Shown in pieces: positions 28,642-37,284 of a stretch of 64,000 nucleotides of DNA; position 1 is the stretch's first letter; each line of letters starts with the position of its first letter. Made by a program: the position numbers and the translations under genes. The notes under the pieces were generated by a model that made no database searches, was not told the origin of the DNA, and saw nothing but the letters and a program-made list of their open reading frames with translations. The stretch comes from an uncultured Candidatus Saccharibacteria bacterium (GTDB taxonomy: Bacteria > Patescibacteriota > Doudnabacteria > UBA920): NCBI GenBank assembly GCA_964600695.1, contig CAZRKK010000002.1, positions 5,354 to 69,353 of the forward strand, given 5' to 3'.

Positions 28642-29664
28642 ATGTCACAATTTAGACGCAATCCAATCAATAAACAGTGGGTATTAATTGCCCCAGGTCG
28701 CGGCAAACGACCTGAGGATTTTCGAACATACAGTGTAAGTTATGGGCTTCCAGAGCTTGACCCGACTTGTATTTTTTGTCCAGGAAATGAAGGAAAAAAC
28801 CCAGACTTGTCAACTGATTCTAGTCGAATTCCAAATAATAAGGATTGGCAATTGCGTGTGATTCCTAATAAGTTCCGGTCGTTGGAGCAGACTAAAGTTT
28901 ATAGTAATAAGGATTTTTATGAATCTCGCTCTGGTTATGGTGATCACGAAGTAATTATTACTCGTAAACATAATGAACCACCGGCTTTGCAATCCGCAGT
29001 GCTTGTTCAACAAAGTTTGAAGTTATTCCAGGATCGGATTAAAGAAATTCAAAAAGACCCAGAGATAAATTATGTTCAAATATTCCACAATCATGGTCGT
29101 GATGCTGGGGCTTCGTTGGTTCATCCTCATTACCAAATTTTAGCGACTCCAATGGTGCCTCCTCATGTACATGAGGAACTTCGTGGTTGTTACCATCATT
29201 ATCAAGAGACTGGTAAGTGTTTGTATTGCGAGATAGTCAAAGAAGAGCTTAAGCATAAAGATCGAATCGTTTATGAAGATGATTATTTTGTAGTCATGTC
29301 TGCTTATGCATCTCGTAGTCCGTTTGAGACTTGGATTTTGCCAAAACGTCATCATTCCAGATTCGAAACAACTTCTGATGTGGAATTACTTCACTTAGCT
29401 CATGTCTTAAAAAAAGTACTCGGTACATTATATGTGAAGCTTGCTGACCCCCCTTTGAATTATTATATTCATACTATGCCTCGCTCGAGTGATAAGCATT
29501 TAGTGCACGAAGAGAAAAGTTACCACTGGCATTTAACAGTATTCCCACGTTTAACTATTTGGGCAGGCTTTGAATATGGAACAGGGATTCCTGTAAACCC
29601 AATGCCTCCAGAAGAGACAGCTAAGTTTTTAAGAGGGGATGCAAATCTTGGGAGGTCTAACTAA
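28642..29664 (+). CDS. galT: Galactose-1-phosphate uridylyltransferase family (GalT-type HIT) protein
   Basis: CIFCPGNEGKNPD and HPHYQILA (HxHxQ). Confidence 0.7.
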   Translation: MSQFRRNPINKQWVLIAPGRGKRPEDFRTYSVSYGLPELDPTCIFCPGNEGKNPDLSTDSSRIPNNKDWQLRVIPNKFRSLEQTKVYSNKDFYESRSGYGDHEVIITRKHNEPPALQSAVLVQQSLKLFQDRIKEIQKDPEINYVQIFHNHGRDAGASLVHPHYQILATPMVPPHVHEELRGCYHHYQETGKCLYCEIVKEELKHKDRIVYEDDYFVVMSAYASRSPFETWILPKRHHSRFETTSDVELLHLAHVLKKVLGTLYVKLADPPLNYYIHTMPRSSDKHLVHEEKSYHWHLTVFPRLTIWAGFEYGTGIPVNPMPPEETAKFLRGDANLGRSN

Positions 29665-30850: not shown

Positions 30851-31489
30851 ATGCTTATTCCGGCAATATTAGAAAATAATAAAAAGAAATATTTAGAAAA
30901 TCTAAAAGCAGTTTTAGCATTGAAGAATATCAAGTCTATACAAATAGATTTTGCCGATGGGGAATTTGTGGCCACTAAAACTTTACCAATCGCCGAGATA
31001 GAACTTCCTGCAAGGTCTAAAATTTTGTTCGAAGCACATTTGATGGTTAAAGAACCCAAGGATTTTGTTTTGTATCAAAAGGCTGGGTTTAAAAAAATCA
31101 TCGTTCATTACGAAGCTTTTAAAAGTGAACTTGATTTAGAAGCAGCTATAGAAGAAATAAAAAAGTTAAAAATGATTCCTGCAATAGCCATTTCTCCAAC
31201 TAGTGAAATTTCTGTAATTCGTTATCATACTGATACAATCAAGGACTTCACTTTGTTGGCTGTGGTTCCGGGTAGGCAAGGACAAAAAATGTTACCAGAA
31301 ACTTTTGATCGACTTCGAGAATTAAGAGATCATGCCCCAGGTGCAAATATCGAGATAGATGGCGGAGTTGATGGTAAAAATATTGCTTCTTTAATAGACG
31401 CCGGCGCAACAGATTGCGTAGCAGGTTCAAGTTTACTAAGAGGTGATATTAAAGAGAATTATAAAGTGCTTATGGAGGCTTTAAAATAA
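30851..31489 (+). CDS. rpe: Ribulose-phosphate 3-epimerase-like TIM-barrel protein
   Basis: IQIDFADGEFV and EAHLMVKEP resemble Rpe metal-binding segments; position between rpiB and tkt. Confidence 0.65.
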   Translation: MLIPAILENNKKKYLENLKAVLALKNIKSIQIDFADGEFVATKTLPIAEIELPARSKILFEAHLMVKEPKDFVLYQKAGFKKIIVHYEAFKSELDLEAAIEEIKKLKMIPAIAISPTSEISVIRYHTDTIKDFTLLAVVPGRQGQKMLPETFDRLRELRDHAPGANIEIDGGVDGKNIASLIDAGATDCVAGSSLLRGDIKENYKVLMEALK

Positions 31490-32340
31490 TGTCAAAACTT
31501 TCATCAACAGATTTACAACTAACTGCTAATAAAATTCGAGAAGATATTATCAGTATGTTAGTGGAGGCGGGGAGTGGTCACAGCGCCGGACCTTTAGGTA
31601 TGGCTGATGTTTTCACTGCTTTGTATTTTGAAGTCATGAATATTAATCCTCATGACCCTAATTGGGAAGAACGTGATTGGTTAATTTTATCGTGTGGCCA
31701 TATTTGTCCAGTGTTGTACGCAACAATGTCTGAACGTGGCTATTTCCCAGCGTCAGAATTAAAATCGCTTCGCAAGCTTGGTACTCGTTTGCAAGGACAT
31801 CCTCATAACTTATCTTTACCTGGCATAGAAACAACTAGCGGACCCTTAGCACAGGGTGCTTCTCAGGCTGTGGGAGTAGCTTTAGCAATGCGGATGAGTG
31901 GTAAAAAGAATCGTGTTTATTTAGTGATGTCGGATGGTGAGCAAAATGAAGGTCAGATTTGGGAAGCTGTTATGTTGGCTGGCAAAGAAAAACTTCATAA
32001 TCTTACTGCCATTATAGACCGCAATAATATTCAAATTGATGGTTATACAGAAGATGTTATGCCTTTGGACAATTTGAAAGCAAAGTACGAAGCCTTTAAT
32101 TGGCACGTTATAGAAGTTGATGGACACAATATTCAGGCAGTGATTAATGCCTATCGTGAAGCAGAGGCGGTGTATGAAAAACCAACAGTCATTATTGCGC
32201 ATACCATTCCAGGGAAGGGCGTGGACTTTATGGAGGGTAAGTTTGAATGGCATGGTAAACCACCAAAAGCTGACGAAGCCAAATTAGCTCTGCAAGAGCT
32301 ACGTACATTGCAAGGAAAAATTAAAAGTGAACATGAATAA
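31489..32340 (+). CDS. Transketolase, N-terminal (TPP-binding) subunit
   Basis: GSGHSAGPLGMADV ... DGEQNEGQIWEA. Confidence 0.85.
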   Translation: MSKLSSTDLQLTANKIREDIISMLVEAGSGHSAGPLGMADVFTALYFEVMNINPHDPNWEERDWLILSCGHICPVLYATMSERGYFPASELKSLRKLGTRLQGHPHNLSLPGIETTSGPLAQGASQAVGVALAMRMSGKKNRVYLVMSDGEQNEGQIWEAVMLAGKEKLHNLTAIIDRNNIQIDGYTEDVMPLDNLKAKYEAFNWHVIEVDGHNIQAVINAYREAEAVYEKPTVIIAHTIPGKGVDFMEGKFEWHGKPPKADEAKLALQELRTLQGKIKSEHE

Positions 32341-32367
32341 TTTTATTAATATAATTAACCAAAAATC

Positions 32368-34125
32368 ATGACAATTCTAATAGGGCTTATTGTAATAATA
32401 TTTTTAATTACTTTAAGCAGAAGAGTTTCTAAAATTGAAGATGCTCTTAAAATCAATCCTGCATTAGGTCGGGCTGTACAACAGCCAGTACCACAGCCAC
32501 AAACCGCACAACCATTACAAGTTGCTCAAACAGCAAAGGTTGCCCAAAAAGCTAGTGCTACTCAACCGGTTGTTGTTGAAACTAATCATCTTGATTCAAA
32601 ATCTTTTGTTAATGCCTTGCCAAAAATTGGGGTCATTGCTCTAGTATTTGGTTTAGCATTTTTCCTAAAATATGCGATTGATCAAGGATGGATTAGTGAA
32701 TCTTTGCGTTTGGGTTTGGGTGCAGTGGTTGGTGGATTGTTATTGGTTCTATTTTATTTATGGAAAGAAAAATATGCTAAGTATGCCTTAGTCTTGGCTG
32801 GTGGAGGATTAGCTATTTGGTATTTAACAATTTTTGCAGCAGTAGAAATGTATGCCATGTTGAGCATGAATGGTGGATTAATCATTTTGTCGATAGTTAC
32901 TATAATCGGTTTATTGCTGGCATATAAAACAAAGTCTCCGAGTTTATCAGCTTTGGCTTGGGGAGGCGCATTTTTATCTCCAATCATATTGTCGTTTAAT
33001 TCCAGTTCTTATAGTTTAATGTTGATTTATATCAGCATCGTCGTGTTGGGATTACTAACATCTATTGTTTATACGAAGTCTTACAAATTATTTGCACTTA
33101 TAATTGCTGGAACTGCCGTTAACTTATTATTCGGGTTGTTCGCAGGATTGTTCACAGAAGAATATTATATTAGAACTCTAATCTTTTTAATAATCCATCT
33201 ATGTGCTAATACGTTTGTAATTACTAATCTTATTCGATCCGATAAAGCAGAGAATAAAGAAATAAATCAAACAGAGTTCGGGCTTTTATTAGTTTTGATA
33301 TTTGCAATTTTTGTGTTGCCAACAGCGTTGATTGCATACTTTAAGTTTAATGATTACTCTACACTTATCATGACTGCTTTGGCTGTTTGGACTTTCCTAA
33401 TTTATGCATTTATTGATCGATTAGAGCTCACTAAGCTTAATTATTTGTTGTCTGGGTTTGGCACATCTCTTTTAGTAATTAGTGTGATTTGGCAGTTTGG
33501 TGATAATTCTCAAGTAGTTATGTTTTATATTCTGGGTTTGGTGGGGATTATCGTTGGTTATATTCAAAAACGAGCGGAACTTCGAGCGTGGGGAGTTTCT
33601 ACAGTTATGGTTGGTCTAGTCTCAGCTTGTTTGGTTAGTTATGGTTCTGTTCCACAGTTGATTGTCACTCAAAAATTTGGTCTCGAAATGCTCGGGTTGG
33701 TAGCATTGGGTGTCGCATATATTTTCTTTAAGGAAGATCAACTCTCAGAATTCGAACATGATATTCATTTAGCAATTCAGTATCTCATAGCTGGATTTGC
33801 ATGGTTCTTTATTTCTTGGGACTTGTATAACTACTATTCTGCTTTCGACCAAGTTAATCAAAGAAATCTATCCTTAAGTTTGTGGTGGTTGGTTTATGCA
33901 ACACTCTTACTTGGAGCTTCTGTTACTCACGTTCTTAAACCTTTAAGAAAAGTAGGTTTGTTGCTATTTGGTTTAGTAATTATCAAAGTGTTTCTTTATG
34001 ACGTGCAGAGTCTAGATATGGTTTATAGAATAATTTCATTTATCAGTTTAGGTGTAATTCTGTTGGTGGTCTCATTTATCTATCAACACAACAAAGAAAA
34101 AATTATCAAATATATTGAATCTTAA
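32368..34125 (+). CDS. Polytopic integral membrane protein (585 aa, ~14 TM) encoded between the two transketolase halves
   Basis: Hydrophobic throughout; stop overlaps the next start (TAATG at 34123-34127). Confidence 0.7.
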   Translation: MTILIGLIVIIFLITLSRRVSKIEDALKINPALGRAVQQPVPQPQTAQPLQVAQTAKVAQKASATQPVVVETNHLDSKSFVNALPKIGVIALVFGLAFFLKYAIDQGWISESLRLGLGAVVGGLLLVLFYLWKEKYAKYALVLAGGGLAIWYLTIFAAVEMYAMLSMNGGLIILSIVTIIGLLLAYKTKSPSLSALAWGGAFLSPIILSFNSSSYSLMLIYISIVVLGLLTSIVYTKSYKLFALIIAGTAVNLLFGLFAGLFTEEYYIRTLIFLIIHLCANTFVITNLIRSDKAENKEINQTEFGLLLVLIFAIFVLPTALIAYFKFNDYSTLIMTALAVWTFLIYAFIDRLELTKLNYLLSGFGTSLLVISVIWQFGDNSQVVMFYILGLVGIIVGYIQKRAELRAWGVSTVMVGLVSACLVSYGSVPQLIVTQKFGLEMLGLVALGVAYIFFKEDQLSEFEHDIHLAIQYLIAGFAWFFISWDLYNYYSAFDQVNQRNLSLSLWWLVYATLLLGASVTHVLKPLRKVGLLLFGLVIIKVFLYDVQSLDMVYRIISFISLGVILLVVSFIYQHNKEKIIKYIES

Positions 34126-35135
34126 TGTTTAACCCAACGCAAAAACTTAATCCCAAACTTAGCGTGATGAGCGCAAGCGATCTGGACAACCTAATAGAGC
34201 AAAAACCGACTCGGGATGGTTTTGGCGAAGCTTTGTTGCGTCTAGGTGAGCAAGACGAACGAATTGTTGTTCTAACCGGCGACTTAAAAGAAAGTACGCG
34301 CGTGCAAGCTTTTGCAGATAAATTTCCTGATAGATTTGTAGAATGTGGGGTTGCAGAACAAAATATGATGGGTGTGGCGGCAGGACTAGCGCTTGCAGGA
34401 AAAATCCCTTTTGCTGCTAGTTACGCTACTTTTAGCCCTGGACGTAATTGGGATCAATTTCGAGTCTCGGTTTGTTATAGCAAGGCTAATGTGAAGGTAA
34501 TAGGTGCTCATACAGGGGTTTCTGTGGGCCCTGACGGTGCAACTCATCAAGCTCTAGAAGATATAGCTATTACCCGTGTGCTTCCAAATTTAACTGTACT
34601 GCAACCAATCGACGCCATCGAAGCCTCAAAAGCAGTGATCGCGATGAGTGATATAGATGGGCCAGTGTATATTCGATTAACTAGAGAAAAAAGTCCTGTT
34701 ATTACAACGCCGGATTCTCCATTCGAAATTGGGAAAGCAAATATATTAAGAGATGGTACGGATGTAGCGATAATAGGGTGTGGCCCAATACTGTATAATG
34801 CTATTAAGGCCGCAGTAGAGTTAGAGAAACAAAATATTAGTGTTTTGATAATCAACAACCATACTATCAAGCCAATCGATAAAAATACTATTCTGTGGGC
34901 AGCTAAGTTAACTAAGGCGGTTGTGACAGTAGAAGAGCACCAAATAGATGGTGGCTTGGGAAGCGCAGTGGCAGAAGTCTTAGCCAGAAATTACCCTGTG
35001 CCTGTCGAGATGGTGGGGATGCCAAATACTTTTGGTGAAAGTGGAACCCCAGAAGAATTATTCGAAAAATATGGCATGGGTGTACAGTCTATAGTTAAGT
35101 CAATAAAGAAAGCGATATCTAGAAAACAAAGTTAA
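34125..35135 (+). CDS. Transketolase, C-terminal subunit
   Basis: GVAEQNMMGVAAGLALAGKIPF. Confidence 0.85.
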   Translation: MFNPTQKLNPKLSVMSASDLDNLIEQKPTRDGFGEALLRLGEQDERIVVLTGDLKESTRVQAFADKFPDRFVECGVAEQNMMGVAAGLALAGKIPFAASYATFSPGRNWDQFRVSVCYSKANVKVIGAHTGVSVGPDGATHQALEDIAITRVLPNLTVLQPIDAIEASKAVIAMSDIDGPVYIRLTREKSPVITTPDSPFEIGKANILRDGTDVAIIGCGPILYNAIKAAVELEKQNISVLIINNHTIKPIDKNTILWAAKLTKAVVTVEEHQIDGGLGSAVAEVLARNYPVPVEMVGMPNTFGESGTPEELFEKYGMGVQSIVKSIKKAISRKQS

Positions 35136-35155: not shown

Positions 35156-36181
35156 ATGCCGAAAACCAAATTTGATTTAATCGCCATTGGTGATCCTACA
35201 ATAGATACTTTTTTGTTGGTCGATGATATTGAAGTAAAAAAAATTAACGGACAACTAAAAGCTATTATAAGCTGGGGTGATAAACTGCCAGTGCAAAAAT
35301 TTTATCGTACAGTTGCTGGGAATGCTGCTAATAATGCTGTTGGAAGTAGTCGATTGGGTCTTAAAACGGCTTTCTATACAGTTCTCGCTCATGATGCAGG
35401 TGGAAGAGAGATTATTCACAAAATGCAAAAAGAAAAAGTTGTTACAGATTATATTGTCATCGATGACAAGCACCCAACTAACGCATCTACAGTACTAAGC
35501 CATAACGGCGAACGGACTATCTTTGTATATCATGAGCATCGAAAATATGTTTTGCCAAAATTGGCACCAGCAAAATGGGTTTACTTAACAAGCTTGGGTG
35601 ATGGCTTCGAAAAAATTTATAAAGATTTGGCTAAGTATTTAGATAAGAATAAAGTCGAGCTAGCTTTTAATCCGGGAACATTTCAACTTCGTAAAGGCCC
35701 TAAGTTTAATAAATTAATGCTCGAAAGAACTTCTGTATTGTCATTAAATAAAGAGGAAGCGCAAAGCTGGGTAGGGAATAGTGAAGATATCGAAGTCTTG
35801 GCGAAAAAATTACAGAAACTTGGGCCAAAGTGTGTAGTAATTACAGATGGTCGTAAAGGTGCTTATAGTTATAGTAACGAAGGTTATTTTTATATCACAG
35901 AATTTCCTGGACCACGCATAGATGCAACAGGGGCAGGTGATAGTTTTACCACTGCGTATGTCGCAGCTTTGGCAAGTGGGCAATCTCATAAGGAGGCCTT
36001 ACGGTGGGGTCCTGTGAATGCTGCTAGTGTCGTTAATAAAATTGGTCCACAGGAAGGCCTGCTCACTAAGAAGGAACTAGCAGGAAAACTTTCTAGAAGT
36101 AAAAGTTATCAGGCCACAGAAATGAAAGACGAAAAAATTAAATCTAAGATTGCTGCTATGGTAGGAAAGATGAAGGATTAA
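35156..36181 (+). CDS. PfkB-family sugar/sugar-phosphate kinase
   Basis: C-terminal DATGAGDSF PfkB signature. Confidence 0.75.
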   Translation: MPKTKFDLIAIGDPTIDTFLLVDDIEVKKINGQLKAIISWGDKLPVQKFYRTVAGNAANNAVGSSRLGLKTAFYTVLAHDAGGREIIHKMQKEKVVTDYIVIDDKHPTNASTVLSHNGERTIFVYHEHRKYVLPKLAPAKWVYLTSLGDGFEKIYKDLAKYLDKNKVELAFNPGTFQLRKGPKFNKLMLERTSVLSLNKEEAQSWVGNSEDIEVLAKKLQKLGPKCVVITDGRKGAYSYSNEGYFYITEFPGPRIDATGAGDSFTTAYVAALASGQSHKEALRWGPVNAASVVNKIGPQEGLLTKKELAGKLSRSKSYQATEMKDEKIKSKIAAMVGKMKD

Positions 36182-37050: not shown

Positions 37051-37284
37051 ATGGGAATGGCTGGTTCCGGTTTATCGGACAAAAATGTAAGGTTACGTTT
37101 TTTAATCTATATTTTCATGGGGGTAATTGCTCTCGGTTCTGTGATGTATTGGAAAGTTAAACTTTTTGAGAATTCAGAATATGTAGAACTGACTTTCGGT
37201 ACTCATAAAGAAAAAGATCCATCACTCTTACAATCAGAAAATTATCAAATCGAAACATTCGAGACTTCACCAAGTGTAAAGTAG
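37051..37284 (+). CDS. Small hypothetical single-TM protein
   Basis: 77-aa ORF tightly packed between fba and gap; TM FLIYIFMGVIALGSVMYW. Confidence 0.3.
   Translation: MGMAGSGLSDKNVRLRFLIYIFMGVIALGSVMYWKVKLFENSEYVELTFGTHKEKDPSLLQSENYQIETFETSPSVK

Follow-up and report, generated by a model that had tools for sequence, protein, structure and literature searches.

A DUF2339-family membrane-protein gene between the two halves of a split transketolase in a Doudnabacteria-like CPR lineage

Why does a gene for a large membrane protein lie between the two halves of a transketolase, and does its position tell us anything about what the protein does? The question arises from a 64,000-nt stretch of DNA from an uncultured CPR bacterium (the window), for which a sequence-only reading had proposed that the enclosed protein is either a transporter for pentoses or nucleosides or a membrane scaffold for the enzyme.

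Gene layout and the split transketolase

The locus is part of a long co-directional pentose-phosphate/glycolysis gene array, in which an ORF check confirmed TktN, the DUF2339 gene and TktC in tandem on the + strand at all coordinates first reported, including those of the 585-aa polytopic membrane-protein gene between the halves:

30851..31489, + strand: RPE, ribulose-phosphate 3-epimerase (PF00834, E 1.4e-30), with a 1-nt overlap of its stop with the TktN start
31489..32340, + strand: TktN, transketolase N-terminal subunit, TPP-binding domain, 283 aa (PF00456, E 1.7e-60)
32328-32355, + strand: candidate sigma-70-like match, TGAACA-16-TATAAT
32341..32367, + strand: AT-rich spacer of 27 nt, 5' of the DUF2339 gene
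32368..34125, + strand: DUF2339/Arc3A-family polytopic membrane protein, 585 aa (PF10101, E 3.7e-58)
34123..34127, + strand: TAATG, with one base common to the DUF2339 stop and the TktC start
34125..35135, + strand: TktC, pyrimidine-binding and C-terminal domains, 336 aa (PF02779, E 6.4e-42; PF02780, E 2.3e-32)
35156..36181, + strand: PfkB-family sugar kinase, next gene of the array (PF00294, E 1.2e-39)

The PfkB-family gene 3' of TktC is also kept in relatives. Because 39 of the 41 large ORFs of the window lie on the + strand, the shared orientation of the three genes is weakly informative. The host is a tiny-genome CPR bacterium.

The description of the transketolase as split was borne out, with PF00456 in one protein and PF02779 and PF02780 in another. 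TktN (positions 15-286 of 627, 300 bits) and TktC (positions 315-625 of 627, 342 bits) jointly span the NCBIfam transketolase NF004559 end to end, and TktN has a dN/dS of 0.004-0.02 against near relatives. The two halves are separate genes in 80/80 CPR relatives sampled, where they mostly overlap or lie side by side (no more than 60 nt apart in 33/69 relatives); those of the window are not adjacent, lying 1784 nt (1.78 kb) apart.

A DUF2339 protein with many predicted membrane helices

The sequence-only reading had guessed at a DUF2339-like protein, and HMM search agrees: the PF10101 match scores 198.3 bits against a curated cut-off of 33.6. It falls in two stretches, the best of which aligns residues 82-478 with profile positions 3-391 of 659, and the 585-aa protein thus matches the profile in part only. 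All 77 homologs found carry PF10101, and an alignment of 16 subfamily members has 41 invariant columns. The dN/dS of the gene is ~0.05-0.07, and its sequence argues strongly for a working gene under purifying selection.

An AF2 model (pLDDT 77.5, pTM 0.67) contains 20 helices, ~18-19 of which are hydrophobic and of membrane length when hydropathy is also consulted, a count that replaces the ~14 TM helices first suggested. The predicted architecture comprises an N-terminal TM helix, a disordered Q/P/A-rich linker (residues 30-78) and then ~17-18 TM helices in close packing, joined by loops that are mostly 2-6 residues long; the many densely packed TM helices that mark DUF2339/Arc3A proteins are therefore present in the model.

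The proposal of a pentose or nucleoside transporter fared less well. There was no transporter family among the Pfam or NCBIfam matches of the protein and no sequence relative of it in the PDB, and a Foldseek search of the AF2 model against the PDB gave nothing below E 0.01, the fold likenesses there being helical-repeat/solenoid proteins only, with no natural transporter fold among them. PADLOC found no anti-phage defence family at E <= 0.01.

Stop/start overlap and expression

At the 3' end of the DUF2339 gene the letters read ...GAATCTTAATGTTTAAC..., and TAA (34123-34125) and ATG (34125-34127) have one base in common, in agreement with the TAATG described earlier. An alternative TktC start at 34167 would remove the overlap, and was ruled out by a conserved N-terminal motif: M-x-N-x-x-QKLNPK lies upstream of ATG 34167 and is kept in ~25 relatives, which identifies ATG 34125 as the true start. 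Overlaps of 1 nt also occur at RPE/TktN (31489) and GalT-like/TIM (29664), so this is a general habit of the gene array and nothing special to DUF2339/TktC. Besides the window, three carriers (L089, L090 and L003) have the overlap with TktC; in L039 the spacing is -4 nt, and in others it lies anywhere from +2 to beyond +800 nt, so that among carriers the overlap is not conserved.

No terminator-like site was found on the + strand within 31489-35135. Promoter-like matches numbered 45, compared with 43.9 expected from shuffles, and because this is no enrichment, we treat the sigma-70-like match at 32328-32355 as a mere candidate. TktN, the DUF2339 gene and TktC are probably co-expressed.

A probable single insertion, inherited and repeatedly lost

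The order TktN-DUF2339-TktC is found in ~20 independent assemblies and is thus neither an assembly artefact nor chance. In NJ trees all carriers fall within one Doudnabacteria-like clade of the TktN+TktC tree, with none in the outer CPR clades, and the pairwise identities of DUF2339 and Tkt correlate (Mantel r 0.90, 0/5000 permutations). The insertion is present in only 5/80 TktN-anchored species representatives, where absence is scored at the TktN-anchored junction and for most genomes may be loss or relocation.

In most close relatives TktN and TktC are adjacent with no DUF2339 gene between them, which shows that the transketolase does not need the DUF2339 protein and speaks against the earlier idea of a membrane scaffold for the enzyme. 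These relatives include a genome, L009, that is ~91% identical to the window DNA over 12 kb, yet is without exactly the segment 32342-34115 of the window, its junction being continuous. L009 lies closest to the carrier L089 (TktN dS 0.14), and since L090, the outgroup to the window, L089 and L009, carries the gene, L009 has lost it. An apparent RPE deletion or fusion in L009 proved to be a stretch of Ns in the sequence entry and not biology.

Could the gene instead have arrived recently, by horizontal transfer or on a mobile element, in the strain of the window alone, or its placement there be a chimera of the assembly? Presence and absence do differ between genomes this similar, the DUF2339 gene has a G+C of 0.32-0.36, below the 0.40-0.43 of the flanking Tkt genes, and the segment missing from L009 has a short imperfect direct repeat at either end, with AAGGAAAAATTA at position 32312 and AAGAAAAAATTA at position 34094. 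However, the many assemblies that share the layout, with DUF2339 co-diverging with Tkt, and the presence of the gene in the outgroup both run counter to this explanation, and the low G+C of the gene, like its negative AT skew, is in keeping with the codons that a hydrophobic protein requires. The usual marks of a mobile element or genomic island (repeats, an integrase or transposase, a tRNA target, an incongruent phylogeny) were lacking: repeats flanking the gene are short and at chance level, no tRNA and no mobility genes were found nearby, and an Rfam search returned nothing meaningful. We regard a strain-specific origin as largely refuted and give it next to no credence. A single ancestral insertion followed by vertical inheritance and repeated deletion is, by comparison, well supported.

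Position between the transketolase halves

We then asked whether the TktN/TktC junction is in itself unusual. Gaps of >200 nt occur at TktN/TktC in 38% of cases, compared with 38% at TktC/PfkB, 39% at PfkB/FBA and 48% at RPE/TktN, and the junction is therefore no more insertion-prone than its neighbours in the operon. In other lineages the cargo between TktN and TktC comprises PIN, AbiEii, 23S_rRNA_IVP, NUDIX, DUF5671, DUF4349 and unknowns.

The placement of the DUF2339 subfamily is nonetheless narrow. It lies at the TktN/TktC junction in ~20 of ~23 readable contexts, a position kept while DUF2339 diverges to ~30% identity. There are two clear exceptions, L005 and L092, in which the gene directly follows 6PGD, near G6PD, and one distant homolog (L096) sits 1.2 kb upstream of RpiB-RPE-TktN-TktC. 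A candidate degenerate TktC after DUF2339 in L005 was rejected (Transketolase_C Pfam E 5.7e-4, below threshold; BLASTP against the TktC of the window, E 8.9). Near-exclusive placement beside tkt or 6PGD ties the gene more closely to the pathway than would be expected of pure hitch-hiking, and the 6PGD context in particular hints at a residual pentose-phosphate link.

These contexts bear on the possibility that the protein is functionally coupled to the enzyme, being made with Tkt as a pentose or nucleoside importer, as an anchor or scaffold for Tkt, or as a pentose/NADPH sensor. The long-kept placement, the second conserved context after 6PGD, the distant homolog near RpiB-RPE-TktN-TktC and the TAATG overlap in four carriers all point in this direction. 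Yet Tkt occurs without DUF2339 in 75/80 species representatives as well as in the ~91% identical relative; outside the Doudnabacteria-like clade, distant homologs adjoin DUF3999 and not Tkt; and neither a transporter family nor a transporter fold was detected. The overlap, moreover, varies among carriers, other lineages place unrelated cargo between the tkt halves, insertions are as frequent at neighbouring junctions, and the argument from pentose-phosphate adjacency is post hoc, drawn from two or three events. We consider such coupling distinctly improbable, and transport of pentoses or nucleosides and scaffolding of Tkt are not favoured as functions. A related idea, to which we give a slim chance, is that a short Arc3A-like protein is tied to the pentose-phosphate pathway in one CPR clade, where it would tether or regulate enzymes of the pathway at the membrane, or link host lipid or nucleoside uptake or turnover to pentose/NADPH metabolism.

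Preferred explanation and its significance

Our preferred explanation combines one ancestral insertion, vertical descent, repeated loss, an Arc3A-type role and a hitch-hiking position, and we put the probability of the whole at roughly 60%. The gene would have entered a single time, in the common ancestor of one Doudnabacteria-like CPR/Patescibacteria clade, at an ordinary tktN/tktC intergenic junction whose flanking halves were already separate genes; it would then have been inherited in place under purifying selection and deleted repeatedly, L009 being one case. It is probably transcribed within a constitutive sugar-metabolism array, and in the lineage of the window translation of TktC would begin at the DUF2339 stop, while the Tkt halves would form the usual enzyme with or without the intervening gene. 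With a single insertion and subsequent losses at an ordinary junction, the position is best read as that of a hitch-hiker, at a place in the operon that is permissive and well expressed. As for function, membership of the family suggests, for this distant 585-aa CPR homolog, Arc3A-type membrane homeostasis, in which dense TM hairpins would limit lysophospholipid or phospholipase damage.

A variant would keep this history and hold that the gene is placed for expression only, for constitutive growth-coupled output or for tuning of the TktN:TktC ratio, without any biochemical link to Tkt and with the protein perhaps serving some other role, e.g., in lipid uptake or as a structural part of the envelope peculiar to CPR cells. 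Strong purifying selection on the gene is consistent with this, as are the tight gene packing on a + strand without a terminator and the fact that the CPR protein is far shorter than Arc3A and is found without Arc3B. Frequent loss, however, speaks against an essential structural role, and we found no specific support for another function; the variant differs from our preferred explanation mainly in the role assigned, and we think it unlikely.

What was found is a gene-order curiosity, assembled from a known enzyme layout and a known, partly characterised family. The sequence-only reading was to fall if the insertion was not conserved among relatives and the protein matched an unrelated, well-characterised family: the insertion is in fact conserved, though patchily, and the protein does belong to an unrelated family, one that is partly but not well characterised. 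The locus nevertheless defines a compact Arc3A-like subfamily in CPR bacteria (~585 aa, ~18 TM helices), a minimal form that could aid mechanistic or structural work on the DUF2339 family, and as CPR bacteria depend on host lipids, a protein that handles lysophospholipids would matter to their biology. It also documents the free gain and loss of accessory genes at the junctions of the CPR pentose-phosphate/glycolysis array, including a junction between the two halves of a single enzyme. The recurrent closeness to pentose-phosphate genes is a hypothesis that can be tested cheaply genome-wide; if true, the link would give the DUF2339 family a metabolic role, in organisms unable to make their own lipids and nucleotides.

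Comparison with known systems

Two-subunit transketolases occur in many archaea, Firmicutes and CPR bacteria. The domain division elsewhere is the same as in the window, where a membrane-protein gene lies between the halves. In Methanocaldococcus jannaschii a gene presumably also lies between the tkt halves MJ0681 and MJ0679, which we take as a lead only; our literature search returned no match for split transketolase or for the M. jannaschii MJ0679/0680/0681 arrangement.

For the membrane protein, the closest known system is Arc3A (PA5114) of Pseudomonas aeruginosa, which is PF10101 in Pfam (Ting et al. 2022, eLife, PMC8926400). Arc3A, the single family member to be characterised, protects against the lipases Tle3, TseL and Tle1 and prevents lysophospholipid accumulation; experiments have demonstrated such protection for the Pseudomonas protein and for a few proteobacterial homologs only (PMC8926400; bioRxiv 10.1101/2024.10.26.620397). 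The hallmark of its family is densely arrayed TM hairpins without obvious catalytic residues (PMC8926400). The window protein shares the Pfam family, the unusually many, dense predicted TM helices and the want of obvious catalytic residues, but has 585 aa and ~18-19 TM helices compared with the ~35 TM of Arc3A, and its gene is embedded between tkt halves in a pentose-phosphate/glycolysis array of a CPR host. Unlike for Arc3A, Gac/Rsm control is not possible.

Gram-negative Arc3A members typically have Arc3B (DUF3999, PF13163) as a neighbour, although Arc3A also occurs without Arc3B, which is therefore not required for family membership (PMC8926400). Unlike arc3A-arc3B, the window gene has no such neighbour, and no DUF3999-like ORF was found anywhere in the window. 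A conserved small Arc3B-like partner after DUF2339 was also considered and rejected, the downstream ORFs of L001, L029, L101, L106 and L108 being mutually unrelated. Distant relatives of the window protein do, however, occur in DUF2339-DUF3999 pairs like arc3A-arc3B.

Within CPR bacteria, a Gracilibacteria genome encodes a 990-aa DUF2339 protein with 32 TM helices (Sieber et al. 2019, mBio, PMC6851277). Like the window protein it is DUF2339-only, TM-rich and from a CPR genome, but it is much longer, has another genomic context and stands among the long DUF2339 forms, whereas the protein between the transketolase halves belongs to the ~585-aa subfamily.

The transketolase locus and its gene array

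The sequence-only reading placed a membrane protein gene between two transketolase genes, joined to the second by a TAATG overlap, and the ORFs, their Pfam matches and the sequence at 34118-34130, which reads TCTTAATGTTTAA, bear out this gene order:

31489-32340, + strand: TktN, N-terminal transketolase subunit, 283 aa (Pfam Transketolase_N, E 1.7e-60)
32368-34125, + strand: DUF2339 membrane protein, 585 aa (PF10101, E 3.7e-58, 198 bits vs. a cut-off of 33.6)
34125-35135, + strand: TktC, C-terminal transketolase subunit, 336 aa (Pfam Transket_pyr and Transketolase_C)

On the 627-position NCBIfam transketolase model NF004559, TktN aligns to positions 15-286 and TktC to 315-625, which adds up to one complete enzyme. 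An AT-rich spacer of 27 nt separates TktN from the DUF2339 gene, while the last base of the DUF2339 TAA is the first base of the TktC ATG. TktC truly begins at the ATG at 34125, since the N-terminal motif M-x-N-x-x-QKLNPK is conserved in ~25 relatives; an alternative start at 34167 was ruled out, as the motif precedes that ATG. The same one-base stop/start overlap occurs at RPE/TktN and GalT-like/TIM, and is thus a habit of the locus.

The three genes sit in a co-directional array (HtrA, RuvX, a GalT-like HIT protein, TIM, RpiB, RPE, TktN, DUF2339, TktC) that continues 3' of TktC with a PfkB kinase, class II FBA, a 77-aa ORF, GAPDH, PGK and enolase. Across the whole 64-kb window 41 ORFs reach 180 aa or more; 39 of these are on the + strand, so that co-orientation is weak evidence for any operon. 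Co-transcription of TktN, DUF2339 and TktC is plausible: 31489-35135 contains no terminator-like site on the + strand, and its promoter-like match (32328-32355) is of a kind no commoner than in shuffled sequence. Searches of the 64-kb window for tRNA and Rfam elements found none. The DUF2339 gene has lower G+C and a strongly negative AT skew, as expected from the codons of a hydrophobic protein.

Two other members of the array deserve mention. The 77-aa ORF (37051-37284, + strand, between FBA and GAPDH) contains a single predicted hydrophobic helix and matches no Pfam family; six relatives (L001, L003, L004, L007, L090, L170) have called ORFs of 68-82 aa directly upstream of GAPDH, and judged by this shared position the glycolytic array may include a genuine, conserved small membrane protein. 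The GalT-like/HIT-superfamily protein (28642-29664, + strand) matches PF01087, PF02744, DUF4921 and, weakly, the Ap4A phosphorylase N-terminal family, and its gene keeps this place, flanked by RuvX and TIM, in every relative examined.

An Arc3A-family protein with densely packed helices

The membrane protein shares Pfam family PF10101 with Arc3A (PA5114) of Pseudomonas aeruginosa, the factor most critical for survival of the phospholipase toxin Tle3. Arc3A prevents lysophospholipid accumulation, and divergent homologs can replace it in an arc3A mutant; the authors of that study trace its function to how many TM helices it has and how densely these are packed, both being unusual (PMC8926400). 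That it also protects against two lipase effectors, TseL and Tle1, was confirmed by a second, independent screen (bioRxiv 10.1101/2024.10.26.620397).

In an AF2 model (pLDDT 77.5, pTM 0.67), the window protein begins with a TM helix, continues with a disordered linker (residues 30-78) and ends in TM hairpins that stack compactly and are joined by very short loops. Model and hydropathy give ~18-19 TM helices, instead of the ~14 first counted. Foldseek returned no PDB match below E 0.01 for this model; no sequence relative was found in PDB, no PADLOC match for the protein, and no DUF3999/Arc3B gene in the 64-kb window.

Some subfamily members are longer by ~130 aa, such as P0021 (L173:951-3119, 722 aa) and those of L104/L105 (~710 aa). 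In P0021 the additional TM hairpins form an internal insertion that duplicates the neighbouring segment, suggesting that DUF2339 proteins grow by addition of hairpin modules, which may be a source of the family's 18-35 TM range.

Distribution of the insertion among relatives

A TktN-anchored scan with one genome per species yielded 80 loci, all from Patescibacteria (CPR) MAGs, in which near relatives with more reliable names are labelled Candidatus Doudnabacteria. Each of the 80 encodes TktN and TktC separately, so a split transketolase is the norm here and no finding in itself; the two genes are adjacent or overlapping (gap ≤60 nt) in 33 of the 69 loci with both visible.

DUF2339 occupies this junction in 5/80 species representatives (L029, L030, L033, L038, L039). 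The tight subfamily's members in the database (~575-620 aa, one of 722 aa) share 30-100% identity with the window protein, and where the context of a member can be read it is nearly always TktN-DUF2339-TktC: in L089 (95% identity), L090 (93%), L001 (53%), L003 (42%) and L004/L007 (36%), in L170, L172 and L173, and in metagenome loci L091/L101, L093, L102, L104/105, L106 and L108. More distant homologs form DUF2339-DUF3999 pairs. Of the members aligned, P0022 (L006:6001-9216, 26% identical) is the most distant; a DUF3999 (Arc3B-like) gene comes after it, and its neighbours include a 23S_rRNA_IVP gene, of a family recurrent in CPR loci. Arc3B homologs are reported to occur in Gram-negative phyla only (PMC8926400).

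A TktN+TktC neighbour-joining tree places every carrier, interspersed with non-carriers, within a single large clade, and the outer clades (Daviesbacteria, Woesebacteria, Parcubacteria-type records) contain none. DUF2339 and Tkt co-diverge in pairwise identity (Mantel r 0.90, 0/5000 permutations; Spearman 0.48), with much of this signal coming from three near-identical genomes. The simplest history is that the gene was inserted once, in an ancestor, then inherited vertically and lost many times. An artefact or a recent mobile insertion is essentially excluded.

Loss in a near-identical genome, and selection

The species-representative MAG closest to the window, L009 (~90-94% identical over 12 kb), lacks exactly window 32342-34115, with a junction reading GAATAATAATGTTTAAC and 0 Ns. 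Because its nearest relative by synonymous divergence (L089, TktN dS 0.14) and the outgroup (L090) carry the gene, L009 has lost it at this site. An apparent second deletion, in RPE, was rejected: L009:5878-5977 consists of 100 consecutive Ns, from a scaffold gap or masking, and these give the false look of an RPE deletion and of a fused RPE-TktN ORF.

No meaningful repeats flank the DUF2339 gene. The segment absent from L009 is bounded by an imperfect direct repeat of ~30 nt at the 3' ends of TktN (32312-32345) and the DUF2339 gene (34094-34127), AAGGAAAAATTA...TGAAT..TAAT; slippage between short repeats is compatible with the deletion, and in AT-rich sequence the repeat may be chance.

Where present, the gene is under strong purifying selection (dN/dS 0.05-0.07, vs. 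0.004-0.024 for the Tkt halves); it is a working gene that seems dispensable.

An ordinary junction with lineage-specific coupling

Gaps >200 nt occur at similar rates (38-48%) across the array, and the TktN/TktC junction is not special.

Loci with a gap >200 nt, by junction
TktN/TktC: 38%
TktC/PfkB: 38%
PfkB/FBA: 39%
RPE/TktN: 48%

Unrelated accessory genes fill the TktN/TktC gap in other CPR lineages; among them are toxins of toxin-antitoxin type and several 275-432-aa ORFs without a Pfam match.

Cargo in the TktN/TktC gap of relatives
PIN: L073:7824-8330; L038:2179-2634
AbiEii: L083:7126-7743; L081:6153-6704
23S_rRNA_IVP: L032:6894-7259; L007:5401-5712
NUDIX hydrolase: L063:7016-7558
DUF5671: L058:6821-7747
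DUF4349: L087:6856-7779
ORFs without Pfam match: L016:6864-8162; L034:5365-6291; L036:6873-7700

The tkt halves thus behave as two ordinary neighbours, between which cargo comes and goes. Spacing from DUF2339 to TktC is -1 nt in the window, L089, L090 and L003, -4 nt in L039, +2 to +17 nt in five loci and +275 to >+800 nt in five others, which makes translational coupling a lineage-specific trait.

Function and relation to known systems

The main rival is a real functional tie of DUF2339 to the pentose-phosphate pathway. Long retention at the tkt junction speaks for it, as do locus L096 and a second conserved context beside 6PGD, in which subfamily members of L005 (5064-8459) and L092 (1884-5213) lie away from the tkt junction, after 6PGD and before a soluble protein of ~210-229 aa (60% identical between the two, no significant Pfam family), with G6PD upstream in L005. 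L005 and L034 belong to one MAG (CAZFQP01), whose tkt junction (L034) holds 308- and 112-aa ORFs with no Pfam match, which suggests that DUF2339 relocated within this genome. Against such a tie stand the many Tkt loci without DUF2339, the absent transporter signature and the fact that independent events are few, and we consider it unlikely. A minimal Arc3A-like protein with a metabolic, pentose-phosphate-linked role in CPR bacteria likewise seems improbable.

We favour one insertion with losses, after which DUF2339 would be expressed by read-through of the constitutive sugar-metabolism array and would serve membrane homeostasis in the manner of Arc3A, with transketolase assembling and acting independently of it. 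As a rule CPR cells make no lipids of their own and use those of their host, and this dependence makes an Arc3A-like membrane role plausible. We give this reading as a whole a probability of roughly 0.6, its evolutionary part ranking higher and the assigned function lower.

Both the split transketolase and the Arc3A/DUF2339 family were already known, and we found no report of the TktN-DUF2339-TktC order in literature mentioning DUF2339. What is new here is a member and a context of a known kind of gene, rather than a new system.
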